64,000 bases of DNA from Eledone cirrhosa (Eukaryota). The first letter of the stretch is position 1. Each line of letters opens with the position of its first letter. Position numbers and translations under genes: made by a program. The stretch covers positions 35,898,001 to 35,962,000 of the forward strand of contig OZ024748.1 of NCBI GenBank assembly GCA_964016885.1, read 5' to 3'. Shown piece after piece: positions 2,523 through 63,872 of this stretch. The notes beneath the pieces were generated by a model, which worked only from the letters and a program-made list of their open reading frames with translations, had not been told where the DNA came from and did not search any database.

Positions 2523-2594
2523 TTCCATTTACCAAAGGTTTCACGAAGACAAGCGAGCTCAACAGAGACGTCTGAAATCGTTCATCAGAAGGAA
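2523..2594 (-). ncRNA. Type I hammerhead ribozyme
   Basis: Minus strand: ttcctt-CTGATGA-acga...tcgt-GAAAC-c ttt g-GTA-aatggaa. The 3' half resembles the 49/50 kb family. Confidence 0.8.
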
Positions 2595-7868: not shown

Positions 7869-7982
7869 TATATATACTTACATACGAATTACTGACCAAA
7901 TAATATTTGGTATCAATGGGTTAAAGGCATCTGTCAAATCAATTAGTTGTGAAGGTGGTGTGTATATATATATAGAGAGATA

Positions 7983-9374
7983 ATTTTCTTTTTATTTGCC
8001 ACCAGGGCATCAAAAAGTGGGACAAGTACAATGGGGGGAGTTTACATAACAAGGCGTCCTCAATAAGGAGGAGGCAATAAAAAAATATAAAAATAAAATA
8101 AAATATGACAAAATAAAATTTATAACAAAATCCTCAATAGAGAGGAGGCGCCATGGAGGGTCGCACACACCCCCGAAAAAAAGTGTGCAACCCTTCTCCC
8201 CAGGAGCACAGAGAGGGGGTGTTCCCTTGGTCTTTCATCTTCCTCACCTATAGTCTGATGTAGAGTGAAGGCCCATTCACACGGGCTATTATCGCCACTT
8301 TCACCCATCTTTCATAGAAACGGCTGGGGTGCAGCACCTCTCTCTCCATCCTGATTCTTCTTCCGAAATGATATCGGAAGAAACGGACCAGTTGTTGGCC
8401 AGAGAGAAAGGTGTCTGACCTCAGTCCTTTCAGACGCGTCCACCATACAACCTCTTTCGCCATGGCTATTACGCACAGAAACACCGCTTCTCCTTTGTTT
8501 TTGAAGAGGGGAGGCGGCTTGATCGTTACAATAGACTCAGTGGTCAACCGGATCGGTCCCACCCTTGACAGCAGTTGTTCGACATAGCCCCACAGATCGG
8601 CAATGCCCGAGCAGTGTATCAATGCGTGTGCAACGGTTTTCTCGTCGCACACGCATCTGGGACAGATCTTTTTCGATGGGTCCCTACCCGGGCGCCCGTG
8701 TATGTAGAGCCTTTCTCGAACGGGCAGAGCCCTTCTGTAGCACTAACAGGCCAGGGACCTCTGGAAGTTATCCATGGGTCCCGGGCTGAATGTCCTACCG
8801 AACAGGTTGGCCAGTTCGTCTTCCTCCATGCCTAGGGCTTCTCCGAGGGCGTCGTCGCACCTGCTAACCACCAGCCCTCTATAGAATGACGAGGTGGATT
8901 CTCCACTGACAGCCAGGTCCGCCTGCCAGAGAGCCGTGAGCGCCTGGGCATACTCGGTGTGCCAGGCGCCCAGTTTTCTCGGTCTTTGCTTGACCCAGGA
9001 TTGCAGCTCGGTGAGTGAGACGAGTCTGGGAAAGGCTCGCCTCACAAACGGGGCCCACACCGGTTGACCGGTGAGGAATACCTGGAGGTGCCGTAGCCTT
9101 AATGCGTGTTTACGTATCATTAGCCACGGCATCCCCAGCCCTCCTTTCGAAGGGTGTTGACAGCAGATGGATCTCCTCACAATAGGAGCCCGCTTCTTCC
9201 AAAGGAATTGGAAGAGTGCGCGATCCATTTTGGCGAGCGTTTCCCTTGGGCAAGGCACAACGGTCAGGCGGTAGTAGATGACGGACGCTATATAAGTGTT
9301 CGCCACCTCCGACCGACCTTTCAGGGACAGTTTGCACTCGGCCCACTTCTGGGTCAGTGCAAACACCCTGTTCG
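7983..9374 (-). mobile_element. 5'-truncated L1/Tx1-clade retrotransposon copy
   Basis: ORFs 8248-8652 and 8743-9372 nearly identical to the ORF2 C-terminus of the 57.8-63.4 kb element; premature stop near 8743. Confidence 0.95.
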
Positions 9375-9686
9375 TACAGATAGATATATAGATACACACA
9401 CACAAACACGCCCCCCCCCCACACACACAGATATATATATTGAATGAGTGTGAAAAACCAAAGTCATTATTGAAAGTCTCTGGATTTCGCAAAATACATA
9501 ATATTAATTATTGGAGAAAGTAAGATATTTTCCCGCAAAAATTTGATTACACTGTTTTGTTTCCACTTATGTATCTTTCGAAAATGTTATTTATTCATTA
9601 TAAAAATTAAATGATAGCATTCTATATGTAGGTGAGCCCCCTTCATCTCCTGGCAACCAATATTTTTAGACCCAGTCCGCCACTGC

Positions 9687-14267: not shown

Positions 14268-14328
14268 TTTCATTATACATATTTCAAGCTCACCAAAGCA
14301 AATTATGGTGCGCTTTCATCAGATAAAA
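14268..14328 (-). ncRNA. Type I hammerhead ribozyme (family A)
   Basis: Reverse complement of ttttat-CTGATGA-aagcgcacca...tggtgagctt-GAAA-tatgtata-atgaaa. Confidence 0.8.
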
Positions 14329-14471: not shown

Positions 14472-14532
14472 TTTTATCTGATGAAAGCGCACCATAATTT
14501 GCTTTGGTGTCCTTGAAATATGTATAATGAAA
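14472..14532 (+). ncRNA. Type I hammerhead ribozyme (family A)
   Basis: ttttat-CTGATGA-aagcgcacca...tggtgtcctt-GAAA-tatgtata-atgaaa. Confidence 0.8.
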
Positions 14533-17910: not shown

Positions 17911-17972
17911 TTTTATCTGATGAAAGCGCACCAAAATTTGCCTTGGTTGCCCTTGAAATATATATAATAAAA
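17911..17972 (+). ncRNA. Type I hammerhead ribozyme (family A)
   Basis: ttttat-CTGATGA(17917)-stem II-GAAA(17955)-tatatata-ataaaa; perfect 6-bp stem I. Confidence 0.82.
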
Positions 17973-18147: not shown

Positions 18148-18182
18148 GAGGTTATATTTAATTTATATATATATATATATAT

Positions 18183-20887
18183 ATGTTTCTTTTATTTTCC
18201 ACCAGGGCATCAAAAGTGGGACAAGTACAATGGGGGGAGTTTACAAAACAAGGCGTCCTCAATAAGGAGGAGGCAATAACAATATATAAAAATAAAATAA
18301 AATATAACAAAAAATAAAATTTATAACAAAGTCCTCAATAGAGAGGAGGCGCCTTGGGGGGTCGCACACACCCCCGAAAAAAGTGTGCAACCCTTCTCAT
18401 CAGGAGCACAGAGAAGGGGTGCTCCCTTGGTCTTTCATCTTCCTCACCTATAGTCTGATGTAGAGTGAAGGCCCATTCACACGGGCCATTCTCGCCACTT
18501 TCACCCATCTTTCATAGAAACGGCTGGGGTGCAGCACCTCTCTCTCCATCCTGATTCTTCTTCCGAAATGATATCGGAAGAAACGGACCAGTTGTTGGCC
18601 AGAGAGAAAGGTGTCTGACCTCAGTCCTTTCAGACGCCTCCACCATACAACCTCTTTCACCATGGCTATTACGCACAGAAACACCGCCTCTCCTTCGTTT
18701 TTGAAGAGGGGAGGCGGCTTGATCGTTACAATAGACTCGGTGGTCAACCGGATCGGTCCCACCCTTGACAGCAGTTGTTCGACATAGCCCCACAGATCGG
18801 CAATGCCCGAGCAGTGTACCAATGCGTGTGCAACGGTTTCCTCGTCGCACACGCATCTGGGACAGACCTTTTTCGATGGGTCCCTACCCGGGCGCCCGTG
18901 TCTGTAGAGCCTTTCTCGAACGGGCAGAGCCCTTCTGTAGCATTGCCAGGCCAGGGACCTCTGGAAGTTATCCATGGGTCCCGGGCTGAATGTCCTACCG
19001 AACAGGTTGGCCAGTTCGTCTTCCTCCATGCCTAGGGCTTCTCCGAGGGCGTCGTCGCACCTGCTAACCACCAGCCCTCTATAGAATGACGAGGTGGATT
19101 CTCCACTGACAGCCGGGTCCGCCTGCCAGAGAACCGTGAGCGCCTGGGCACACTCGGTGTGCCAGGCGCCCAGTTTTCTCGGTCTTTGCTTGACCCAGGA
19201 TTGCAGCTCGGTGAGTGAGACGAGTCTGGGAAAGGCTCGCCTCACAAACGGGGCCCATACCGGTTGACCGGAGAGGAATACCTGGAGGTGCCGTAGCCTT
19301 AATGCGTGTTTACGTATCATTAGCCACGTCATCCCCAGCCCTCCTTTCGAAGGGTGTTGACAGCAGATGGATCTCCTCACCATAGGAGCCCGCTTCTTCC
19401 AAAGGAATTGGAAGAGTGCGCGCTCCATTTTGGCGAGCGTTTCCCTTGGGCAAGGCACCACGGTCAGGCGGTAGTAGATGACGGACGCTATATAAGTGTT
19501 CGCCACCTCCGCCCGACCTTTCAGGGACAGTTTGCACTCGGCCCACTTCTGGGTCAGTGCAAACACCCTGCTCGTCACCTCACCCCAGTTCTTCTCCACC
19601 TGGAGGTCTGGTCCGAACCAGACCCCGAGCAATTTCACCGGGCCCTCCGTCCAGCGACCGACGACGCCATCGGAGGGCATCGATCTGCCCCTCCACGTGC
19701 CGAGTTGCAGACCGATCGACTTGTCCCGGTTCAGCTTAGCCCCTGTAAACCTTTCGTACTCCTCCAGTAAGGTGCCGATCGCCCCGATTTCCGAGGCCGT
19801 CGACACCATTACTGTTACGTCATCGGCGTAGGCTGACACCGCTTTCCGCAATCCCGGTCCCAACGGGATGCCCCGCTACAACTCCAACTTCCGCAGCAGT
19901 GGCTCTAGAGTCATTACATACAGAAGGGAGGAGAGAGGGCACCCCTGTCGGATGGACCGCGCGATTTCGAACGGCTCCGAGAGGTAGCCGTTCACCTTGA
20001 CCCTAGAGCAGATGCGGCTGCTGTGCATGGCATTGATCCAGCCCCTGAAAATGGGTCCGAAGCCTGCCGCCGCTAGCACCGCATCCAGGTAACCATGGTC
20101 GACCCTATCGAATGCCTTAGATTGATCCAAGTTGATCAGGGCCCCACCAAAGCCGGGTTCGTTCCCAACCCTCTCTATGATGTATCGCATGAGGTGGAGG
20201 TTATCGTGGATGGACCTGGACGGGATAGCACATGTCTGCGCATCTCCCACCAGGTTGCCCACGACAAGCGCCAACCTCTTTGCTAGCACCTTGGCCAAAA
20301 TCTGTAACTCTGTATTTAGCAGAGTTATGGGCCTGAAATTATTTATATCGTCCCCCTTGTTCTCGTCCTTCCTCACTAGCGTGACTACGCTCTTGGTCAC
20401 AGCACAGGGAATTCTCCCGTTCTGTCGCCAGTTGCAGTAGACCGCCTCGAGGAGTTCGGGGAACAAGTCCGGCATAGCTAGATATAGTTCGTATGGAAGA
20501 CCATCGAGACCCGGGGATTTGCGTTTGCCGCATTGGCTCAGCACGTCCTCTATCTCAGCGGCTGAAATCGGCTCCTCGCAGGACTTCGCCTCCCTGTCCG
20601 AAAGACGCAGCAGGCCGTCGAGGTATGGACCGAAGTCCACGTCCCCAACCGGCCCCCCCTCCCCTTCCGAACAATTCGGCAAAGTGCTTTTGAAAAGCCT
20701 CGCACATCTGCTTAGGTTCAAGGATCACCCGTCCATCCTGGTCTCGCAAAGACCGGATAGTGGATCTGCTCCCTCTTTTGGCTTCTGTCACGCGGGCCCA
20801 GCTAACAGCTTTGGTCCCCTCGTTTCCCAGAGCACGTATTTTGCTTCGGACGATGCAGCCTTCGTGTTTCGCGTCGAAGAACTGGCC
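18183..20887 (-). mobile_element. 5'-truncated L1/Tx1-clade retrotransposon copy (RT + zf-RVT)
   Basis: KSPGLDG, FRPITLLN, DQSKAFDRV, IRQGCPLS, AYADDV and CPRC..ETVAHALVHC motifs; premature stop at 19876-19878. Confidence 0.97.
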
Positions 20888-23886: not shown

Positions 23887-24041
23887 GTGGAACACTGGAA
23901 GGTAATATCCGTAGTAGTAGAGCACTCAGTCCATGGGACGAGTTAGGATCCGCTAAGGTATGGTGAACTAACTGTTGTATAACCACTTCTATATATATAT
24001 ATAAAAGATAATTTCGCTCTACATGGCTGAATACAATAAAT

Positions 24042-24232
24042 GTAATCTGAGTTTTTCGAATATTAATAATAACATTCGATTCGTTTGCAATTTTGCAAAC
24101 AAGCCTCAATTTTATAGCCATGTCAGGAGGATGAAGAGTTCATTCTCCTGACATGGCTATAAAATTGAGGCTTGTTTGCAAAATTGCAAACGAATCGAAT
24201 GTTATTATTAATATTCGAAAAACTCAGATTAC
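24042..24232. repeat. Near-perfect palindrome (~95-bp arms)
   Basis: Pivot catgtcaggag-gatgaa-gag-ttcatt-ctcctgacatg. Confidence 0.92.
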
Positions 24233-24310
24233 TTTTATATATATATATATATATATTAATAAAGGATCGGATGCCATATTCAATTGATTCAGGTTTATTT
24301 AAAACTCCGC

Positions 24311-24471
24311 TATACATATTTCACCGAGGACTATCAGTTATGACAGCCTGAGCTCTTCAGACGTTATACATATTTCACTGAGGACTATCAGTTATGACAG
24401 CCTGAGCTCTTCAGACGTTATACATATTTCACTGAGGACTATCAGTTATGATAGCTTGAGCTCTTCAGACG
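24311..24471 (-). ncRNA. Tandem array of three 54-bp hammerhead ribozyme units
   Basis: Unit on minus strand: cgt-CTGAAGA-gctcaggctgtca-taac-tgatagtcctcagt-GAAA-tatgtata-a(cg); units start at 24311, 24365 and 24419. Confidence 0.8.
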
Positions 24472-24575
24472 GTAAAACCTAAAAATAAACATTGTAATTT
24501 CCGAAGAAACCTTTACATTTTGAAAAATCCAATAATTTCCTCGGAAAAAATGTTTTTTTATAACACACACACACA

Positions 24576-24650
<75 letters not shown>

Positions 24651-24678
24651 GTATATATATATATATACATATATATAC

Positions 24679-24732
<54 letters not shown>

Positions 24733-24748
24733 CGGCGATGAATTAGTT

Positions 24749-25378
24749 TTGCGAGGTTTTTTATATGAAATCGTGTGTCGAAACAGATTATGGAACGACA
24801 ACCAGAGATATCAGAGTGTCATGTTTGTGGACGCCACCCCTGGAGGGAAATTAGCTAACCAGTGTAGAAAGGCCCTGAGAAAGACCCACTTAAAAATAAA
24901 GGTGGTAGAAAAGCCAGGAACCACCATAAAATCCCTGATCAGCAAAACCTACCCTTTTAAGAAAACCCACTGTACCAATAGGAAATGTATCATATGTAAG
25001 GTGAACCCCCGGATAAACTGTAAAACTAGAAACGTAGTCTATAGCATAAGATGTACAGAGGGTACTTGCAGAAACATGACAACAACATACATAGGTGAGA
25101 CAGCTCGTAGCATAGGTGAAAGGATAGACCAACACTGGGGGGAACTAAAAGGACGAAAAAACGGGTCAGTACTATACGAACATGCTAGACAACAACATGA
25201 CGGTAACATAGACAACATAGAAATTAGAATAATATCTAAACATAGGAATGACCCAGCAGATAGGCAAATCAGAGAGGCCAGTGAAATAGAAATTAGAAGA
25301 CCAAAGCTAAACAGAAAGAATGAGTGGAACAACAACAACACCCAAACAAACAACACTAAGAGAAGTATAAATAAGTAA
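24749..25378 (+). CDS. Penelope-like element C-terminal GIY-YIG endonuclease (5'-truncated)
   Basis: C-rich linker HCTNRKCIIC..NCKTRNVVYSIRC, YIGETARSIGERIDQH, RQIREASEI..PKLN. Confidence 0.88.
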   Translation: MRGFLYEIVCRNRLWNDNQRYQSVMFVDATPGGKLANQCRKALRKTHLKIKVVEKPGTTIKSLISKTYPFKKTHCTNRKCIICKVNPRINCKTRNVVYSIRCTEGTCRNMTTTYIGETARSIGERIDQHWGELKGRKNGSVLYEHARQQHDGNIDNIEIRIISKHRNDPADRQIREASEIEIRRPKLNRKNEWNNNNTQTNNTKRSINK

Positions 25379-25649: not shown

Positions 25650-25695
25650 ACACCACTGACGATGTTGCAGATGTGCAACGAAAGATTTATGTAAA
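25650..25695 (+). ncRNA. Minimal hammerhead in the PLE 3' pseudo-LTR (mirror copy ~56862-56902, minus strand)
   Basis: CTGACGA-t-gttgca-gatg-tgcaac-GAAA-gattTA; stems I and III are weak. Confidence 0.6.
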
Positions 25696-28852: not shown

Positions 28853-29075
28853 CAGTTTATCTTACTTGTGGTCGTCCTATGTCATTATTTGGCCGTTTGT
28901 CTTATCTGTGTCTTCATGTGATTGTTTATCACACCTGTAAACGTCCTGTGTCTCCAGGTAATCGTTTATCTCACCTGTGATCTTCTTGTGTCTCCAGGTA
29001 ATAACATATCTCACCTGTGGTCTTCCTGTGTCTTCATTTGATAGTTTATCTCACTTGTGGTCGTCGTGTGTCTCT
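28853..29075. repeat. ~35-bp degenerate minisatellite (~6 units)
   Basis: gtttatctcacctgtggtcttcctgtgtct repeated. Confidence 0.8.
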
Positions 29076-30999: not shown

Positions 31000-33541
31000 G
31001 ACAGACATTGATGGAGGTACATGGTACAGTGTTCAAACATGTGGTACGACAAAGAAGGGTGACATGACGTGGTACAGTGTTCCAACATGTAGTACGAGAG
31101 GGAAGGGTGATAGGACGTGGTACAATGATCCAACATGTGGTACGACAGAGAAGTGTGACAGGACGTGGTACAGTGATCCAACATGTGGTACGACAGAGAA
31201 GAGTGACATGACATGGTACAGTGTTCCAACATGTGGCACGACAAAGAAGGGTGACAGGGCGTGGTATAGTCATCCAACATGTGGTACAACAGAGAAGGGT
31301 GTCAGGACGTGATACAGTCATCCAACATGTGATACGACAGAGAAAGGTGACCGGTCGTGGTACAGTGATCCAAGATGTGGTACGATAGAAAAGGGTGACA
31401 GGACGTGGTGCAGTGTTATTAACATGTGGTGCGACAGATGAGGGTGACAGGACGTGGTTCAGTGAGCAACATGTGGTACGACATAGATTGATGGAGGAAC
31501 ATGGTATAGTGTTCCAACATGCGTTATGACAGACATTGATGGAGGAACATGGTACAGTGTTCCAACATGTAGTACGACAGAGAAGGGTGACATGACGTGG
31601 TACAGTGTTCCAACATGTGGTACGACAGAGAAGGGTGACAGGACGTGGTACAGTGTTCCAACATGTGGTACGGCAGAGAAGGGTGACAGAACGTGTCATA
31701 ATCATCCAACATGTGGTACGACAGAGAAGGATGTCAGGACATGGTGCAGTGTTATTAACATGTGGTACGACAGATAAGGGTGACCGGGCGTGGTACAGTG
31801 ATCCAACATGTGTTACGATAGAGAAGAGTGACAGGACGTGGTTCAGTGTTCTTAACATGTGGTACGACAGAGAAGGGTGGCAGGACGTGGTTCGGTGATC
31901 CAATATGTAGTACGACAGAGAAGGGTGACCGGACGTGGTACAGTGTTCTTAACATGTGGTACGACAGAGAAGGGTGACAGGACGTGGTACAGTGTTACAA
32001 CATTTGGTACGACATACATTGATGGAGGAACATGGTATAGCGTTCCAACATGTGCTATGACAGACATTGATGGAGGAACATGGTACATTGTTCCAACATG
32101 TGGTACGACAGAGAAGGGTGACAGGGCGTGGTACAGTGTTCCAACATGTGGTACGACAGAGAAGGGTGACAGGGCATGGTACAGTGTTCCAACATGTAAT
32201 ACGACAGAGAAGAGTGACATGACGTGGTACAGTGTTCCAACATGTGGTACGACAGAGAAGAGTGACAGGACGTGGTACAGTGTTCCAACATGTGGTACGA
32301 CAGAGAAGAGTGACAGGACGTGGTACAGTGATCCAACATGTGGTACAACAGAGAAGAGTGGCAGGACATGGTACAGTGATCCAACATGTGGTACGACAGA
32401 TGAGGGTGACAGGACGTGGTACAGTGTTCCAACCTGTGGTACGACAGAGAAGGGTGACAGGACGTGGTATAGTCATCCAACATGTGGTACGACAGAGAAG
32501 GGTGTCAGGACGCGCTACAGTGATCCAACATGTGTTACGACAGAGAAGGGTGGCCGGGCGTGGTACAGTGATCCAACATGTGGTACGATAGAGAAGAGTG
32601 ACAGGACGTGGTGCAGTGTTCTTAACATGTGGTACGACAGAGAAGGATGACAGGACGTGGTTCGGTGATCCAACCTGTGGTACGACAGAGAAGGGTGACA
32701 TGACGTGGTACAGTGTTCCAACATGTGGTACGACAGAGAAGGGTGACAGGACGTGGTACAGTGTTCCAACATGTGGAACGATAGAGAAGGGTGACATGAC
32801 GTGGTATATAGATCCAACATGTGGTACGACAGAGAAGGGTGACCGGACGTGGTACAGTGATCCAACATGTGGTACGATAGAGAAGGGTGACAGGACGTGG
32901 TGCAGTGTTATTAACATGTGGTACGACATAGAAAGGTGACAGGACGTGGTACAGTGTTGCAACATGAGGTACGACATACATTGATGGAGGAACATGTTAT
33001 AGTGTTCCAACATGTGATATGACAGACACTGATGGAGGAACATGGTACATTGTTCCAACATGTGGTACGACAGAGAAGGGTGACAGGACGTGGTACAGTG
33101 ATCCAACATGTGGTACGACAGAAAAAGGTGACATGACGTGGTACAGTGTTTCAACATGTAGTACGACAGAGAAGGGTGACAGGACGTGGTGCAGTGTTCC
33201 AACATGTGGTACGACAGAGAAGGGTGACAGGACGTGGTACAGTGATCCAACATGTGGTACGACAGATAAGGGTGACATGACGTGGTACAGTGTTACAACA
33301 TGTGGTACGACAGAGAACGGTGACAGGACGTGGTACGGTGATCCAACATGTGGCACGACAAAGAAGGGTGACATGACGCGGTATAGTGATCCAACATGTG
33401 GTACGACAGAGAATTGTGACAGGACGTGGTACAGTGATCCAACATGTGGTACGACAGAGAAGGGTGACAGGACATGATACAGTGTTCCAACATGTGGTAC
33501 GACAGAGAAGGGTGACATGACGTGGTATAGAGATCCAACAT
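31000..33541. repeat. 48-bp minisatellite, ~50 units
   Basis: Consensus gacgtggtacagtgatccaacatgtggtacgacagagaagggtgacag, with 50-bp and gacattgatggagg variant units. Confidence 0.95.
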
Positions 33542-36973: not shown

Positions 36974-37035
36974 TTTTATCTGATGAAAGCGCACCATAAT
37001 TTGCCTTGGTTGCCCTTGAAATATGTATAATAAAA
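36974..37035 (+). ncRNA. Type I hammerhead (family A), preceded by a terminal hairpin at 36861-36935
   Basis: ttttat-CTGATGA(36980)...GAAA-tatgtata-ataaaa. Confidence 0.8.
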
Positions 37036-37270: not shown

Positions 37271-37328
37271 TTCTATCTGATGAAAGCGTACCAAAGTTTT
37301 TGGTACCCTTGAAATATATATAATAGAA
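37271..37328 (+). ncRNA. Type I hammerhead (family A) with compensatory changes
   Basis: ttctat-CTGATGA-aagcgtacca..tggtaccctt-GAAA-tatatata-atagaa. Confidence 0.88.
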
Positions 37329-40999: not shown

Positions 41000-42408
41000 G
41001 TGTTGGCAAACTTGGTTAAACCAGGTCTTGAACTGAAGCATGTGATCCGGTGTTGGCAATCTTGGTTAAACCAGGTCTTGAACTGAAGCATGTGATCCGG
41101 TGTTGGCAATCTTGGTTAAACCAGGTCTTGAACTGAAGCATGTGATCCGGTGTTGGCAATCTTGGTTAAACCAGGTCTTGAACTGAAGCATGTGATCCGG
41201 TGTTGGCAATCTTGGTTAAACCAGGTCTTGAACTGAAGCATGTGATCCGGTGTTGGCAATCTTGGTTAAACCAGGTCTTGAACTGAAGCATGTGATCCGG
41301 TGTTGGCAATCTTGGTTAAACCAGGTCTTGAACTGAAGCATGTGATCCGGTGTTGGCAATCTTGGTTAAACCAGGTCTTGAACTGAAGCATGTGATCCGG
41401 TGTTGGCAATCTTGGTTAAACCAGGTCTTGAACTGAAGCATGTGATCCGGTGTTGGCAATCTTGGTTAAACCCAGATCTTGAACTGAAGCATGTGATCCG
41501 GTGTTGGCAATCTTGGTTAAACCAGGTCTTGAACTGAAGCATGTGATCCGGTGTTGGCAAACTTGGTTAAACCCAGATCTTGAACTGAAGCATGTGATCC
41601 GGTGTTGGCAATCTTGGTTAAACCCAGATCTTGAACTGAAGCATGTGATCCGGTGTTGGCAAACTTGGTTAAACCAGGTCTTGAACTGAAGCATGTGATC
41701 CGGTGTTGGCAATCTTGGTTAAACCCAGATCTTGAACTGAAGCATGTGATCCGGTGTTGGCAAACTTGGTTAAACCAGGTCTTGAACTGAAGCATGTGAT
41801 CCGGTGTTGGCAATCTTGGTTAAACCAGGTCTTGAACTGAAGCATGTGATCCGGTGTTGACAATCTTGGTTAAACCAGGTCTTGAACTGAAGCATGTGAT
41901 CCGGTGTTGGCAATCTTGGTTAAACCAGGTCTTGAACTGAAGCATGTGATCCGGTGTTGGCAATCTTGGTTAAACCCAGATCTTGAACTGAAGCATGTGA
42001 TCCGGTGTTGGCAAACTTGGTTAAACCAGGTCTTGAACTGAAGCATGTGATCCGGTGTTGGCAATCTTGGTTAAACCAGGTCTTGAACTGAAGCATGTGA
42101 TCCGGTGTTGGCAATCTTGGTTAAACCAGGTCTTGAACTGAAGCATGTGATCCGGTGTTGGCAATCTTGGTTAAACCCAGATCTTGAACTGAAGCATGTG
42201 ATCCGGTGTTGGCAATCTTGGTTAAACCAGGTCTTGAACTGAAGCATGTGATCCGGTGTTGGCAAACTTGGTTAAACCCAGATCTTGAACTGAAGCATGT
42301 GATCCGGTGTTGGCAAACTTGGTTAAACCAGGTCTTGAACTGAAGCATGTGATCCGGTGTTGGCAAACTTGGTTAAACCCAGATCTTGAACTGAAGCATG
42401 TGATCCGG
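41000..42408. repeat. Homogeneous 50/51-bp minisatellite, ~28 units
   Basis: gtgttggcaa(t/a)cttggttaaa(ccagg/cccaga)tcttgaactgaagcatgtgatccg. Confidence 0.97.
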
Positions 42409-42467
42409 TTTCAAGTCAAACTTGTAGCTATGGTCACTTTTCTTTAGATCTATCATGTGCACCATTA

Positions 42468-43457: not shown

Positions 43458-43458
<1 letters not shown>

Positions 43459-44437
43459 ACCGAGTGTGCCCAGGCGCTCACGGCTCTCTGGCAGGCGGAC
43501 CCGGCTGTCAGTGGAGAATCCACCTCGTCATTCTATAGAGGGCTGGTGGTTAGCAGGTGCGACGACGCCCTCGGAGAAGCCCTAGGCACGGAGGAAGACG
43601 AACTGGCCAACCTGTTCGGTAGGACATTCAGCCCGGGACCCATGGATAACTTCCAGAGGTCCCTGGCCTGGCAATGCTACAGAAGGGCTCTGCCCGTTCG
43701 AGAAAGGCTCTACAGACACGGGCGCCCGGGTAGGGCCTCCTCAAAAAAGATCTGTCCCAGATGCGTGTGCGACGAGGAAACTGTTGCACACGCATTGGTA
43801 CACTGCTCGGGCATTGCCGATCTGTGGGGCTATGTCGAACAACTGCTGTCAAGGGTGGGACCGATCCGGTTGACCACCGAGTCTATTGTAACGATCAAGC
43901 CGCCTCCCCTCTTCAAAAACGAAGGAGAGGCGGTGTTTCTGTGCGTAATAGCCATGGCGAAAGAGGTTGTATGGTGGAGGCGTCTGAAAGGACTGAGGTC
44001 AGACACCTTTCTCTCTGGCCAACAACTGGTCCGTTTCTTCCGATATCATTTCGGAAGAAGGATCAGGATGGAGAGAGAGGTGCTGCACCCCAGCCGTTTT
44101 TATGAAAGATGGGTGAAAGTGGCGAGAATGGCCCGTGTGAATAGGCCTTCACTCTACATAAGACTATAGGTGAGGAAGATGAAAGACCAAGGGAGCACCC
44201 CTTCTCTGTGCTCCTGAGGAAAAGGTTTGCACACTTTTTTTCGGGGATGTGTGCGAACCCCCCAAGGTGCCTCCTCTCTATTGAGGACTTTGTTATAAAT
44301 TTTATTTTTTGTTATATTTTATTTTATTTTTATATATTGTTATTGCCTCCTCCTTATTGAGGACGCCTTGTTTTGTAAACTCCCCCCATTGTACTTGTCC
44401 CACTTTTGATGCCCTGGTGGCAAATAAAAGAAACATA
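43458..44437 (+). mobile_element. 5'-truncated L1/Tx1-clade copy inserted in (TCTA)n
   Basis: ORF 43546-44169 is the ORF2 C-terminus; (TCTA)n on both sides. Confidence 0.95.
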
Positions 44438-44927
44438 TCTATCTATCTAGTCATCCATTCATATACATAGATATAATTATGTAGATAAATAAATAAATAA
44501 ATACATAGCGCTAGATAATTAGATCTTTTTTGTATGCTTACATAGTTCAGTTGCTCTGTTTTTCTCAGTTAATTAGTATATCAGGCAAATAAGTGTATAG
44601 CACGAAAACCTTGATAGCGCTACTTGATCATGGCTGCTAAAAATTCTGCTATCAGAATAGCACGGTTATTCTGGACAAAATGGCCGACACTTATATGGTG
44701 GAGGGTTGGGTAATTTGAAAAGCTCTTATAATCCTATTAACTTCGGCCTTTGCTGGTAATTCCTTATCGAAGATTTCATGTGAATGGGGATAGAGTACAA
44801 TCGTAATATGAATTCATGTGGAAAGTTTCATGAACCATTTAAGAAACAAAGACAACGATTTTCATCGTCGGCTTTCATCCATTTTACATAACTTCACGTT
44901 AAACAGAAAAATAGATAGATAGATAGA

Positions 44928-49044: not shown

Positions 49045-49104
49045 TTTCATTCTGATGATTGAATGAAAAATTTTTTGCTCTTAAGAAACCACTGGTAAAT
49101 GGAA
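49045..49104 (+). ncRNA. Type I hammerhead in left direct repeat (49031-49135)
   Basis: tttcatt-CTGATGA-ttgaa..cttaa-GAAAC-cactg-GTA-aatggaa; stem II partly decayed. Confidence 0.78.
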
Positions 49105-50305: not shown

Positions 50306-50365
50306 TTTCATTCTGATGATTGAAAGCAACATTTTTTGCTTTTAAGAAACCACTGGTAAATGGAA
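50306..50365 (+). ncRNA. Type I hammerhead in right direct repeat (50292-50396)
   Basis: 7-bp stem I, CTGATGA 50313, 10-bp stem II ttgaaagcaa/ttgcttttaa, GAAAC 50346, GTA 50356-50358. Confidence 0.92.
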
Positions 50366-50390: not shown

Positions 50391-50930
<540 letters not shown>

Positions 50931-54377: not shown

Positions 54378-54467
54378 TTTTAATATAGATGAGATTCTAC
54401 AGGACTAGAACTGTTTCATTCTTCAGAAATCATCAGGAATCTGGGTATAAAAAATGTGTATTTGTAA

Positions 54468-55948: not shown

Positions 55949-56485
55949 TGTATGTGTATGTGGGTGTGTCTATGGGTGCGCGCGAGTGTATGAGTGAGTG
56001 TGTTTTGTGAATGTGTCTGTTGATTTTGGCATATAGTTGAATAGTTTAAGAGACATTTGAAGACAATAGTAAGATATGCACTCAATATTTTGAATTTGTC
56101 TACAGAATTCTCTAAACCTTGTCACTTAGTAAAGAATTTAGCTTTTAAAGAATCTCCCTTTCCTTTAAATCTATCTACCATGACTGACCCCCACTGATTT
56201 TATAGACACCTGTTAGCTTAATAAGGATTGGCATGCCATCCTGAACCTGTTTATAGAAGTCTTTCTGCCTTTGTTACTCTAAAAATAAAAATAAACTATA
56301 GCTTTGTAGAATTAGCTTCTAATGAATTCTGTCAACCAATGACCTACACCATCCCACTCTCCACCCTCTCCTACCACTTGTAGAGACCTATATATACCAT
56401 AATTATTTTTTGATACCTAGATTCCTGATGATTTCTGAAGAATGAAACAGTTCAAGTCCTGTAGAATCTCATCTACATTAAAACT
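54378..56485. repeat. Inverted pair of ~75-bp hammerhead-core-bearing arms (54378-54455 / 56404-56485)
   Basis: CTGATGA-tttc tgaa gaat-GAAAC-a-GTT at 56425-56452 and its mirror at 54409-54436; no adjacent stem I seen. Confidence 0.7.
54537..55259. repeat. ~92-bp identical direct repeats flanking ~540 bp
   Basis: ttgctcgcaccaacctgagg...ctgatgaaggacaaactttttcatat at ~54537-54629 and ~55167-55259. Confidence 0.9.
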
Positions 56486-56595: not shown

Positions 56596-56965
56596 CGGCG
56601 ATGAATTCGTGTAGCGAGGTTTTTTATATGAAATCGCGTGGCGAAACAGATATTGTTATATTTGGGGAGGGTCATATTTGCGTAATATTGCCAGAATTAA
56701 TAACAGAACACACTCACTGTTTGGTTGGTTTTCGCTTCTCGCTGTCTTTTATATCTGCGATCTAACTTACTCGGTCCTCACTGTTGCCATTGACTGACCG
56801 GCGGTCAAAAATAATACAGATACAATATAGACACAAACACATATATATAGTTTACATAATTTACATAAATCTTTCGTTGCACATCTGCAACATCGTCAGT
56901 GGTGTTATATTCATTGTTCCTCCTGTTGTGTTGTATGTCTACGTCATTTTTTATTCAGACTGAAT
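56594..56965 (-). mobile_element. Solo inverted copy of the PLE pseudo-LTR from 25590-25905
   Basis: 56650-56960 is the reverse complement of 25590-25905; preceded by the same ~57-bp leader found at 24731. Confidence 0.85.
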
Positions 56966-57350: not shown

Positions 57351-57410
57351 TTTTATTATATATATTTCAAGGGTACCAAGACAACATTAGTACGCTTTCA
57401 TCAGATAAAA
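57351..57410 (-). ncRNA. Type I hammerhead (family A)
   Basis: ttttat-CTGATGA-aagcgtactaa..ttggtaccctt-GAAA-tatatata-ataaaa. Confidence 0.83.
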
Positions 57411-58049
57411 TACAAACTTTGTTTTATAAATAGAGACATACCCATGAAAATCATACCTCATCGGTTGGAAATTCACTGGATAGTAGAAATATATTAGGGA
57501 TTATTCAAACTTATGTGTGAATATGCAAATGAATATGTAAATAATTGAAAAACAACCGTTTATTTAAACGACATTGGAGAAAGAGTGAGAGAAGATATAA
57601 GAGGAGAAAGATAAAAAAAATAGTACGAGAGAGAGAGAATAAATAAACAAGAGAGGATGAATAAAACTCATTAAATATTTACTCCAGTAAACTGTTGAGT
57701 GCTCTAAATCAGTTATAAACATTTATATTTGTCGGACTTGCAACAAATTAAATACCCCTTCTATTTATATATATATATATAGATAATTTTCTTTTTATTT
57801 GCCACCAGGGCATCAAAAAGTGGTACAAGTACAATGGGGGGAGTTTACAAAACAAGGCATCCTCAATAAGGAGGAGGAAATAACAAAATATAAAAATAAA
57901 ATAAAAAAAAATAGAATAAAATTTATAACAAAATCCTCAATAGAGAGGAGGCGCCTTGGGGGGTCGCACACACCCCCGAAAAAAAGTGTGCAACCCTTTT
58001 CCTCAGGAGCACAGAGAAGGGGGCTCCCTTGGTCTTTCATCTTCCTCAC

Positions 58050-61000
58050 CTATAGTCTGATGTAGAGTGAAGGCCCATTCACACGGGCCATTCTCGCCAC
58101 TTTCACCCATCTTTCATAAAAACGGCTGGGGTGCAGCACCTCTCTCTCCATCCTGAAACGGACCAGTTGTTGGCCAGAGAGAAAGGTGTCTGACCTCATT
58201 CCTTTCAGACGCGTCCACCATACAACCTCTTTCGCCATGGCTATTACGCACAGAAACACCGCCTCTCCTTCGTTTTTGAAGAGGGGAGGCGGCTTGATCG
58301 TTACAATAGACTCGGTGGTCAACCGGATCGGTCCCACCCTTGACAGCAGTTGTTCGACATAGCCCCACAGATCGGCAATGCCCGAGCAGTGTACCAATGC
58401 GTGTGCAACGGTTTCCTCGTCGCACACGCATCTGGGACAGATCTTTTTCGAGGGGGCCCTACCCGGGCGCCCGTGTCTGTAGAGCCTTTCTCGAACGGGC
58501 AGAGCCCTTCTGTAGCACTGCCAGGCCAGGGACCTCTGGAAGTTATCCATGAGTCCCGGGCTGAATGTCCTACCGAATAGGTTGGCCAGTTCGTCTTCCT
58601 CCATGCCTAGGGCTTCTCCGAGGGCGTCTTCGCACCTGCTAACCACCAGCCCTCTATAGAATGACGAGGTGGATTATCCACTGACAGCCGGGTCCGCCTG
58701 CCAGAGAGCCGTGTGCCAGGCGCCCAGTTTTCTCGGTCTTTGCTTGACCCAGGATTGCAGCTCGGTGAGTGAGACGAGTCTGGGAAGGGCTCGCCTCACA
58801 TACGGGGCCCACACAGGTTGACCGGAGAGGAATACCTGGAGGTGCCGTATCCTTAATGCGTGTTTACGTATCATTAGCCACGGCATCCCTAGCCCTCCTT
58901 TCGAAGGGTGTTGACAGCAGATGGAGCTCCTCACCATAGGAGCCCGCTTCTTCCAAAGGAATTGGAAGAGTGCGCGCTCCATTTAGGCGAGCGTTTCCCT
59001 TGGGCAAGGCACAACGGTCAGGCGGTAGTAGATGACGGACGCTATATAAGTGTTCGCCACCTCCGCCCGACCTTTCAGGTACAGTTTGCACTCGGCCCAC
59101 TGCTGGTTCAGTGCAAACACCCTGTTCGTTACCCCACCCCAGTTCTTCTCCACCTGGAGGTCTGGTCCGAACCAGACTCCGGGCAACTTCACCGGGCCCT
59201 CCGTCCAGCGCCCGACGACGCCATCGGAGGGCATCGATCTGCCCCTCGACGTGCCGAGTTGCAGACCGATCGACTTGTCCCGGTTCAGCTTAGCCCCTGT
59301 AAACCTTTCGTACTCCTCTAATAAGGTGCCGATCGCCCCGATTTCCGAGGCCGTAGACACCATTACTGTAACGTCGTCGGCGTAGGCCGACGCCGCTTTC
59401 AGCAATCCCGGTTCCAACGGGATGCCCCGCAACAACTCCAACTTCCGCAGCAGTGGCTCTAGATTCATTACATACAGAAGGGAGGAGAGAGGGAACCTCT
59501 GTCGGAATGAACCGCGCGATTTCGAACGGCTCCGAGAGGTAGCCGTTCACCTTGACCCTAGAGCAGATGCGGCTGCTGTGCATGGCATTGATCCAGCCCC
59601 TGAAAATGGGTCCGAAGCCTGCCGCCGCTAGCACCGCATCCAGGTAACCATGGTCGACCCTATCGAATGCCTTAGATTGATCCAAGTTGATCAGGGCCCC
59701 ACCAAAGCCGGGTTCGTTCCCAACCCTCTCTATGATGTATCGCATGAGGTGGAGGTTGTCGTGGATGGACCTGGACGGGATACCACATGTCTGCGCATCT
59801 CCCACCAGGTTTCCCACGACAAGCGCCAACATCTTTGCTAGCACCTTGGCCAAAATCTGTAACTCTGTATTTAGCAGAGTTATGGGCCTGAAATTATTTA
59901 TATCGTCCCCCTTGTTCTCGTCCTTCCTCACTAGCGTGACTACGCCCTTGGTCACAGCACAGGGAATTCGCCCGTTCTGTTGCCAGTTGCAGTAGACCGC
60001 CCCGAGGAGATCGGGGAACAAGTCCGGCATAGCTAGATATAGTTCGTATGGAAGACCATCGAGACCCGGGGATTTGCGTTTGCTGCATTGGCTCAGCACG
60101 TCCTCTATCTCAGCGGCTGAAATCGGCTCCTCGCAGGACTTCGCTTCCCTGTACGAGAGACGCGGCAGGCCGTCGAGGTATGGACCGAAGTCCACATCCC
60201 CAACCGGCTCCCCGCCCCTTCCGAACAATCCGGCAAAGTGCTTTTGAAAAGCGTCGCACATCTGCTTAGGTTCAAGGATCACCCCTCCATCCTGGTCTCG
60301 CAAAGACCAGATAGTGGATCTGCTCCCTCTTTTGGCTTCTGTCACGCGGGCCCAGCTAACAGCTTTTGTCCCCTCGTTTCCCAGAGCACGTATTTTGCTT
60401 CGGACGATGCAGCCTTCGTGTTTCGCGTCGAAGAACTGGCCCAGGGCCGTTCTCGACGCTAGCACTCTGGCCACGTCGCCGCTTCTAATTGCCTCTTCTA
60501 CACTATCTACCAACTCCCTTTCCTTCCTATTTCTATTTGAGGCTAACTCCTTACTAAATTCTATAGAGACTACTCTAATCTTTCTTTTGAGAGATCCCCA
60601 CCACCTGCTGTTGACGATGGCGCCCGTCAACCGCTCCTTAATTAAAGTGCTAATCCGGTCCCTGTAAGCCTTACTTGCCGGTAAGGACAAGTTGAGCTTC
60701 CAGTAACCGGGTCCCTGTCTATGAGTTCTGTCAAGGTTGACCATGCAGGTCACTAACTTGTAGTCTGAATAGCCAACTATGCGCATTTTTGGACAACTTA
60801 AAAAGTCCTTATCCTCAATTCTAACTAAGAACCTATCTAGGTACGACCTAGATGATCCGCTACGATTTGCCCAAGTCCAGGTTGGCGCAGTCGGAAAATC
60901 TAGTCGATATCTATCGGCCAGGTCAAATCGACCGATTAACCCTCTATCGGGACAGGCCCCTACGTAGTCCCAGCGTGCATCTAGGATACCATTCCAGTCC

Positions 61001-61419
61001 CCCACTAATAGCAAGGAGCGGGACGTCCCTAGAAAAGTCTCCAGACGATGGAAGAAGTCCGGCCGCGTTGACCCGAAAGGGCGGTAGGCGGCTACCAACC
61101 TAAACGCTCCGCCTTCACCACTGCCAAGGTCCAGAACCACTAGTCGACCCTCCGGGTCCAAATGTACCATCTGTGTTGCGAGACCCAGATGTTTTTGCAG
61201 CAGAACGACAACCCCACCCCCACCTCCGGGCTGACAGAGAGATGCGTGCATCTCAAAGTCATCAAAGGTGCGGGCCAGCTGTCGCACGTTGCTGATCCGG
61301 GCCTCGCAAATAACCATCACATCTATACGTTGTGACCTGAGGTCATTTAGAAGCATTGCTTGCTTCCAAGTTGAGCCCAGGCCACGCGCATTTAAACAGC
61401 CTACTCTTAGCATAGCCAT
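58050..61419 (-). pseudogene. ORF2: AP endonuclease + reverse transcriptase + C-terminal CCHC (frameshifted)
   Basis: CLNARGL, VICE, VGDWN, SRSYLDRF, SDYK, WKLN, KSPGLDG, DQSKAFDRV, AYADDV, CPRC..HALVHC; split over four ORF pieces. Confidence 0.95.
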
Positions 61420-61443
61420 GTTGGTGGTGAAGAGAAAAGGCAC

Positions 61444-63464: not shown

Positions 63465-63872
63465 TAAATATACACGGGTGTGTATGATTGTGTATAGAAC
63501 ATTATATTAATAAAAGGAATTTCAACTTTGTCTGATTTACTCGTTTTATTTACAATCCTTTAAAATTTATAATAGTATTAGAATGAAATAGTATGGTAGA
63601 ATATTAAATGTTAAGTGTTAATTGAACAAGTACTTTCATGCTTTCGCAATCTTCAGCTTCATATTCTGTTTGCAATTTTCAAGAAAATTTCAAACTTGAC
63701 TGTCACCACAGAATATGAAACTGAAGATTGCGAAAGCATGAAAGTACTTGTTCAATTAACACTTAACATTTAATATTCTACCATACTATTTCATTCTAAT
63801 ACCATTATACATTTTAAAGGATTGTAAATAAAACGAGTAAATCAGACTAAGTTGGAATTCCTTTTATTAATA
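63465..63872. repeat. Second copy of the 50.5-kb palindromic hammerhead element
   Basis: CTGAAGA-ttgcgaaagcat-GAAA-gtacttgttca at 63721-63754 with a mirror at ~63623-63660. Confidence 0.9.

Follow-up and report, generated by a model that had tools for sequence, protein, structure and literature searches.

Minimal type I hammerhead ribozymes (HHRs) in the pLTRs of Penelope-like elements (PLEs) have been outlined as motifs with a long helix II, a short helix I and a palindromic helix III, which are mostly single and depend on dimers (Cervera & de la Pena 2014, PMC4209133); the cleavage of HHR dimers is summarised in PMC6765202. The classical non-LTR retrozymes of animals, as outlined by Cervera & de la Pena (2020, PMC7229834), have units of 150-450 bp and are expressed as self-paired circular RNA. 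In its main text, a recent preprint (Li, Clavereau & Pollet 2026, bioRxiv 10.64898/2026.07.22.740005) gives retrozyme consensus units of 51-972 bp, links them to pLTRs, proposes a route from a PLE terminus to a minisatellite by unequal crossover, and records cleavage in one of nine tested dimers.

Here we describe a 54-bp tandem array of hammerhead cores at 24311-24471 of a 64-kb window, by which we mean the whole stretch of DNA that was analysed. The window is eukaryotic DNA rich in microsatellites, in which fragments of LINEs and of Penelope-like elements occur.

Comparison with described hammerhead elements

The core CUGANGA / GAAA / UH was found in type I order in all three units of the array, with a 4-bp stem I (4-5 bp expected), a 12-pair stem II, and a tiny palindromic helix III of 2 bp plus a 4-nt loop. 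With the PLE minimal HHR, to the extent that it is described in PMC4209133, the array shares the intact core, the long helix II and the 4-bp helix I, and its family shares the tiny palindromic helix III and the occurrence mostly as single, dispersed, truncated copies; inverted pairs likewise lie nearby in the window. The array departs from that type in having a G.U pair in place of G10.1-C11.1 and no extra base after A9 (between 9 and 10.1). A G-C variant at 24377 was present in 47 of 49 plus-direction reads of one sequencing run (X9) and in 2% of depth in another (X1). The array also differs in that its core is itself tandemly multiplied, and no autonomous partner was identified.

The classical retrozymes outlined in PMC7229834 (coral, mussel and axolotl, with newt satellite 2 and schistosome Sm-alpha) are, like the array, tandem with one type I HHR per unit, and the array is likewise non-coding and apparently present in many copies. 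However, its unit is 54 bp instead of 150-450 bp and lacks loop 1 and distal helix I, whereas the unit described in 2020 has a full helix I and usually loop1-loop2 contacts. Neighbouring units of the array share stem I, and the array is embedded in a parent monomer, which bounds it in place of a TSD. The classical retrozymes form multiple dispersed arrays inserted as units, with TSDs when present, and abundant, highly self-paired circular RNA, whereas the predicted circle of the array is only weakly paired.

By the operational definition of Li et al. (2026), as its main text gives it (at least two consecutive complete type I HHRs, a fold below -5 kcal/mol, 51-972 bp), the array is a retrozyme. 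The first-pass annotation had held that retrozyme monomers are longer than this unit, a view that the units from 51 bp in the preprint have made outdated. The preprint and the present analysis propose the same origin from PLE termini with expansion by unequal crossover. The preprint's main text gives no anatomy of its shortest units, whereas at this locus the junction at which the repeat was born is resolved and the parent flanks are kept; its sample is mostly vertebrate, whereas the host genome here appears to be invertebrate. Similar core-only units may be present among its families. Core-only units that have a palindromic stem I in common with their neighbours did not turn up in the literature surveyed, mostly abstracts; this is weak evidence that none has been described. 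The array thus resembles the PLE minimal hammerhead, and is a retrozyme by the operational definition and not by the classical one.

Structure of the array

TRF analysis of the 64-kb window gave 3.0 copies of the 54-bp repeat at 24311-24471, with 97% matches and zero indels, and a separate repeat-family search of the window recovered the same 54-bp family. It is the only such array within the 64 kb. Every unit has, on the minus strand, CTGAAGA followed by an interrupted stem II, then GAAA and TATGTATA. Stem II comprises 12 pairs, including a G.U closing pair, with one C-C mismatch, one bulge and a 4-nt loop. Both the three-fold 54-bp array and this anatomy in every unit bear out what had been read from the letters at first pass.

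The full type I descriptor was matched by all three array units. In the whole window it had 11 matches, whereas 100 block-wise dinucleotide shuffles gave 0.04 on average and never more than 1; the bare CTGANGA..GAAA pattern had 22 matches, against 2.4 in shuffles, and hammerhead-like motifs in the 64 kb number about 20 overall. An assembly or chance artefact was rejected for the array on these motif statistics and on independent runs. The Rfam search of the 64-kb window gave no match at the gathering threshold, and to E=10 it gave four chance matches with no hammerhead family among them. A sister type I HHR family has six copies in the window, at 14282-14322(-), 14478-14518(+), 17917-17958(+), 36980-37021(+), 37277-37314(+) and 57365-57404(-); its stem I has 8 bp, and it shares its stem III with the array family. 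Its copies at 14282-14322(-) and 14478-14518(+) form an inverted pair around a hairpin.

Unit 1, the 5'-most (24419..24472, minus strand), consists of the native 5' stem I strand CCGT, core, stem II and stem III; it carries a monomer-type allele in stem II at 24452, and its cut is predicted after 24419. Unit 2 (24365..24418, minus strand) begins with the junction ACGT, measures exactly 54 nt from cut to cut, and matches the closed 54-mer contig of run X4 without a difference. Unit 3 (24311..24364, minus strand) has the junction ACGT, the core and a minor allele at 24325, with the predicted cut after 24311. ACGT is present at both inter-unit junctions, and the outer ends of the array, CCGT (5') and GCGG (3'), together form the native stem I of one monomer, which extends outward into predicted helices of 9 bp and 7 bp. 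The overlap of stem I strands through ACGT, which had been described at first pass, holds at both junctions and not at the outer ends. The description of each unit as a complete hammerhead stands for the sequence, in which all three units pass the descriptor, and fails for simultaneous folding: because one ACGT serves both, neighbouring units cannot be folded as hammerheads together.

The inner 126 bp of the array (24326..24451) are perfectly 54-periodic and carry the array-type allele at 24344/24398. Seven minor alleles fall in the 99 outer bp of the locus compared with none in the inner 126 bp (Fisher p=0.003, or p=0.02 when the inner part is counted as 72 independent bp). Such an edge/centre pattern is typical of homogenised minisatellites. 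It could alternatively mean that two array units were converted into an older monomer.

Parent element and origin of the junction

The whole element (24256-24562) sits between a (TA)n tract and (CA)n/(TA)n tracts, and its 5' hairpin is present. The 3' flank of the parent monomer (24256..24310, minus strand) begins with the stem I 3' strand GCGG, in which the family majority has A at the first place, and contains distal stem I strands at 24296-24288 and 24282-24276. The 5' flank (24473..24562, minus strand) has distal stem I strands at 24483-24475 and 24492-24486, and an imperfect hairpin at 24480-24562. The (TA)n tract at the 3' end of the element (24238..24256) is its likely insertion target, and (CA)n followed by (TA)n tracts bound the 5' end (24563..24731). 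PLEs have been described as biased toward (TA)n or microsatellite targets (PMC8557442, in outline). The tail reaches (TA)n 62 nt after GAAA, similar to the 58-60 nt in four of the six sister-family copies, and no ORF is linked to the element. The array lies in register within both the 5' and the 3' flank of a monomeric, probably Penelope-type tail, and in these features the element matches a putative 5'-truncated Penelope-like tail.

A PLE C-terminal GIY-YIG endonuclease fragment (24749-25378, plus strand) adjoins the element on the opposite strand. It has a Cys-rich linker before a GIY-YIG-like motif. Pfam does not recognise this fragment, which was assigned through homologues, one of them with weak RVT_1 and GIY-YIG matches; the protein match of highest identity is labelled Octopus vulgaris (56% identity, with 52% of the query covered). 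Its presence indicates that PLEs with a C-terminal endonuclease exist in the genome. As the parent of the array element it was rejected, since it lies on the opposite strand and has no DNA similarity to the element. An inverted repeat of 100 bp (24036-24238, 98%, 3-nt spacer) abuts the element, with no second copy in the window; it may be a MITE or a further inverted end of a PLE.

The family-majority stem I strands are CCGT (5') and ACGG (3'). With the majority allele at 24310 making the 3' strand ACGG, the junction is explained letter for letter: ACGT is the 3' strand A(CG) joined to the 5' strand (CG)T through a 2-nt CG microhomology. The junction lies 1-3 nt past the predicted cleavage site. 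This position, at a 2-nt microhomology beyond the cut, argues that the unit was not first made by cutting and ligating a monomer, and origin by cleavage and ligation was rejected on the inferred derivation of the junction A from beyond the cut site.

Abundance of the family and of the unit in sequencing runs

The element was mapped at 80% likeness against runs X1, X4, X7 and X9, four of the 11 listed runs (X2, X3, X5, X6, X8, X10 and X11 were left out). X7 carries another organism label, X9 consists of RAD reads, and X4 is presumed, by a guess, to be DNA. Matches to the family were found in 1121 contigs of X1, 1134 contigs of X7, 359 reads of X9, and one contig of X4. Loose contig ends at 24363 and 24416 run on into the 5' and 3' flanks, and the joints among those listed jump 107-119 nt, which together indicate that most copies of the family are monomers. 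Searches with the family pattern gave no match in metagenome contigs, and the junction 24-mer gave none in viral contigs or in prokaryote genomes. Eight loci found in the collections with a relaxed pattern were rejected as chance, none having a hammerhead stem I/II context.

Nineteen places in the 40 variant rows listed (there are 153 further rows) lie inside the array and map to 17 of the 54 unit offsets. None of the rows listed falls in the 12 core positions (p=0.005), and a core free of listed variants indicates that the family was retained as a ribozyme. Pairing in stems I, II and III is intact in 97.5% of cells over nine window motifs of two families, rows that are related and hence weak as covariation. 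The X7 matches include a subfamily (24404/24458, 24407, 24423, 24425, 24454) in which a stem II base differs and stem III, although changed in its letters, can still pair with itself; by inspection, the listed loop variants at 24423 and 24425 preserve the self-pairing of stem III.

The majority allele at 24310 accounts for 15,980 of 16,130 depth in X1 and 103 of 105 reads in X9. The array-type C at 24344 makes up ~7,070 of 9,879 summed depth in X1, ~210 of 3,852 in X7, and 4 of 58 reads in X9, where summed contig depth is not copy number and is inflated by overlapping unitigs. A second variant, 24406, reaches a depth of 3,899 in seven contigs; its placement on the middle unit with 31 letters left to the contig end implies that it spans a junction. 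The locus's own 5' flank has a depth of 8.9, the flank alleles of the window are rare, for example at 24310 and 24283 (~1% of depth), and the 5' arm of the middle unit is represented in the RAD reads by seven reads at 24404.

The sole X4 contig is 84 nt long (54+30), identical to 24341-24424 with zero differences, and has a depth of 3.4. Its 30-nt ends match and it contains all 54 cyclic 31-mers, a k-mer cycle that indicates a tandem and not an RNA circle, since it arises from any tandem DNA array. No monomer contig was found in X4. An 84-nt form with identical 30-nt ends is the form that Logan gives to circular contigs, and Logan, in the outline available, discards isolated linear contigs below 150 bp and retains circular ones (10.1101/2024.07.30.605881), a rule that favours seeing the cycle alone in X4. 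The cycle is likely to be among the most abundant family words in trace or related DNA, because a single three-copy locus at a depth of 3.4 would bring hundreds of monomer contigs with it. The 54-mer unit is probably abundant beyond this locus and not a one-off slippage, the run data being compatible alike with one long, variable or collapsed array and with many. A single locus with no other multimers, which the first-pass annotation had named as the finding that would speak against its proposal, is probably not what we see, as the exact 54-mer cycle appears abundant in other runs.

The unit differs from the monomer majority at one listed position only. In both abundant array variants the affected stem II pairs persist as G.U wobbles, and the core is untouched. 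These few, pairing-preserving differences fit RNA-level selection as well as youth; the comparison of 1 in 54 (unit) with 7 in 99 (outer bp) is not significant (p=0.26).

Predicted folding of the RNA

Folding was assessed by constrained nearest-neighbour calculation, which ignores Mg2+, tertiary contacts, and chaperones or proteins. The predicted penalty for the active fold in cis was 10.5-13.2 kcal/mol for each array unit, and 9.3-12.5 kcal/mol when core n was combined with site n+1 in the window array and in 3- to 6-mers. An isolated unit could form all three stems with a penalty of 5.5 kcal/mol (MFE -12.3, active fold -7.6 kcal/mol), and a perfect 2-mer had a penalty of 4.9 compared with 11.7 kcal/mol in cis. 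Sister-family monomers required 4.2-5.3 kcal/mol and the sister dimer 2.5. An in-silico monomer of the array family had a penalty of 12.8 kcal/mol, and because this monomer folds badly too, the penalty is not specific to the array. The best active fold found in the window array joins the first core to the last site, at 6.0 kcal/mol, and uses the native stem I of the outer ends together with a stem III of 8 bp. In constrained dimer folds the stem III strand self-pairs over 8 bp. The 54-nt circle is predicted to have an MFE of -6.7 kcal/mol with a mispaired core, and since it holds only one ACGU it would be unable to form stem I alone. Active folds of the array are thus predicted to be rare.

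On the minus strand, 24300-24308 are predicted to pair with 24349-24356, so that the 3' tail masks the purine box and the start of stem II. The same tail-core mispairing was predicted for the in-silico monomer, and it could be an off-state of the family or decay of this copy.

Origin of the array

We lean, with moderate confidence, towards the reading that the array is a hammerhead core tripled inside one ordinary copy of a high-copy, dispersed Penelope-type tail, and that a slip or template switch at stem I created a core-only unit that was then amplified at the DNA level, RNA processing being weak or absent. Established in this reading are the repeat, the anatomy of the ribozyme, the in-register monomer flanks and the dominance of monomers in the family. 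At the beginning, a slip or template switch from one stem I CG to the other would have copied the enclosed 54 nt, and the same event would have written ACGT at the joint. Slippage, unequal exchange or gene conversion would then have multiplied the unit to many copies, giving either multi-core elements or extended arrays at a single locus or several, and would have homogenised the inner 126 bp, with the edges keeping older alleles. The route of minisatellite amplification is open, because ribozyme-free minisatellites of 40-50 bp share the window (31022-33541, 48 bp x52; 41000-42409, 50 bp x28; 28906-29074, 40 bp x4). The transcript is predicted to cleave poorly, on the grounds that inner units share a 4-bp stem I, lack distal stem I and mispair via the palindrome GAGCUC. 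As the best active fold uses the first core and the last cut site, a single weak cut near 24311 is predicted and not a 54-nt ladder.

Three other readings were weighed against this DNA-level amplification. The reverse transcriptase may have jumped across the folded stem I during insertion, with no circle, and founded a subfamily of multi-core tails, in which extra cores would give in cis the palindromic partner of stem III and the tails would self-cleave once and spread by retrotransposition. The two CG strands pair in the folded RNA, which would place the jump exactly, and the predicted penalties agree with such a role for extra cores, both for the first core with the last site (6.0 kcal/mol compared with 12.8 for the in-silico monomer) and for the 2-mer compared with the unit in cis; minimal HHRs are moreover described as functioning as dimers (PMC4209133). 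We nevertheless regard it as unlikely. The flank alleles are rare and the array allele is abundant, which argues that the version with these flanks is not the one that was amplified; in RAD reads, a sample of the dispersed copies, array-type alleles were few (4 of 58) and the depth at 24404 was only seven reads; and the differences among units follow the edge/centre pattern instead of being random. A purely local triplication by slippage, with no other multimers and with depth derived from a monomer subfamily or from inflation of the assembly graph, seems very improbable to us. A single such array in 64 kb is what it would give, a 2-nt microhomology around a hairpin would suffice for it, and overlapping unitigs do inflate summed depths; but X4 has a full cycle at depth 3.4 and no monomer contigs where X1 and X7 have hundreds, and the 24406 variant on the middle unit implies that a junction is spanned.

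Quite doubtful, in our estimate, is an active minimal retrozyme, whose multimers would self-cleave to 54-nt monomers that are ligated to circles and rolled by a PLE reverse transcriptase, with the cDNA recombined into this monomer or founding arrays elsewhere, and whose junction would need one earlier illegitimate event. Once the junction exists, cut-to-cut is exactly 54 nt and religation restores it. The unit is seemingly abundant and homogeneous, with a closed k-mer cycle in X4; the inner 126 bp are cleaner than the flanks; both abundant array variants keep pairing; and an isolated unit can form all three stems. A 'ribozyme-only' replicon in this sense appears to us quite doubtful as well: a hammerhead cut down to its core, for which a neighbour or another copy would provide the palindromes of both stem I (ACGU) and stem III, and which would leave multimers as 54-nt RNAs, be circularised and be recopied by a Penelope-type reverse transcriptase into hundreds of genomic units. 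Both native monomer flanks are in register, so that two template switches from a circle would be needed, and the circle lacks the family's 3' tail, whereas in vitro, as outlined for one PLE (PMC11167929), insertion starts at the pLTR tail and uncleaved RNA is the main substrate. The monomeric circle, with its one ACGU, weak predicted pairing and mispaired core, would not form stem I alone; active folds of multimers are disfavoured in the predictions; and any tandem DNA array yields a closed k-mer cycle in a run such as X4 that is guessed to be DNA. The suggestion made at first pass, that reverse transcription of a ~54-nt circle gave rise to this locus, is accordingly not supported by the in-register monomer flanks or by a junction that lies past the cut site, and the absence of the 3' tail from the circle and the predicted rarity of active folds speak further against it.

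If amplification at the DNA level is the correct reading, the birth of a hammerhead tandem repeat has been caught here at base resolution, with the parent flanks still present and the joint a microhomology of stem I. The locus would then support the view that retrozyme-like satellites bud from Penelope-type tails via DNA-level duplication. It also calls for caution, in that pipelines for tandem HHRs will score such arrays as 'active retrozymes', whether they cleave or not. Whether a core-only hammerhead multimer of this kind, 160 nt long, would process itself to a 54-nt ladder, gain a single cut by providing its own stem III, or be inert has implications for how small a circular RNA replicon can be; were the replicon reading true, no smaller retrozyme would have its origin resolved, and the unit would serve as a naturally occurring minimal model for viroid-like circles.

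Other hammerhead motifs and elements in the window

Another HHR family, whose stem I has 7 bp and whose stem III reads CCACTGG, occurs at 49052-49088(+) and 50313-50349(+). A motif at 2539-2588(-) resembles the CCACTGG family on its 3' side and fails the type I descriptor. Two inverted head-to-head hammerhead-like pairs, at 50640-50756 and 63634-63743, end 126 nt before (TA)n, and a hammerhead-like family with a longer stem III is found at 54414-54436(-) and 56425-56447(+). Downstream of the PLE endonuclease fragment, at 25656-25683(+), lies a hammerhead core with stem II and no clear stem I, which is repeated at 56872-56899(-). LINE copies with endonuclease, RT and zf-RVT matches are located at 18161-20887, 57763-61443, 7963-9375 and 43458-44495, and are 93-97% alike.
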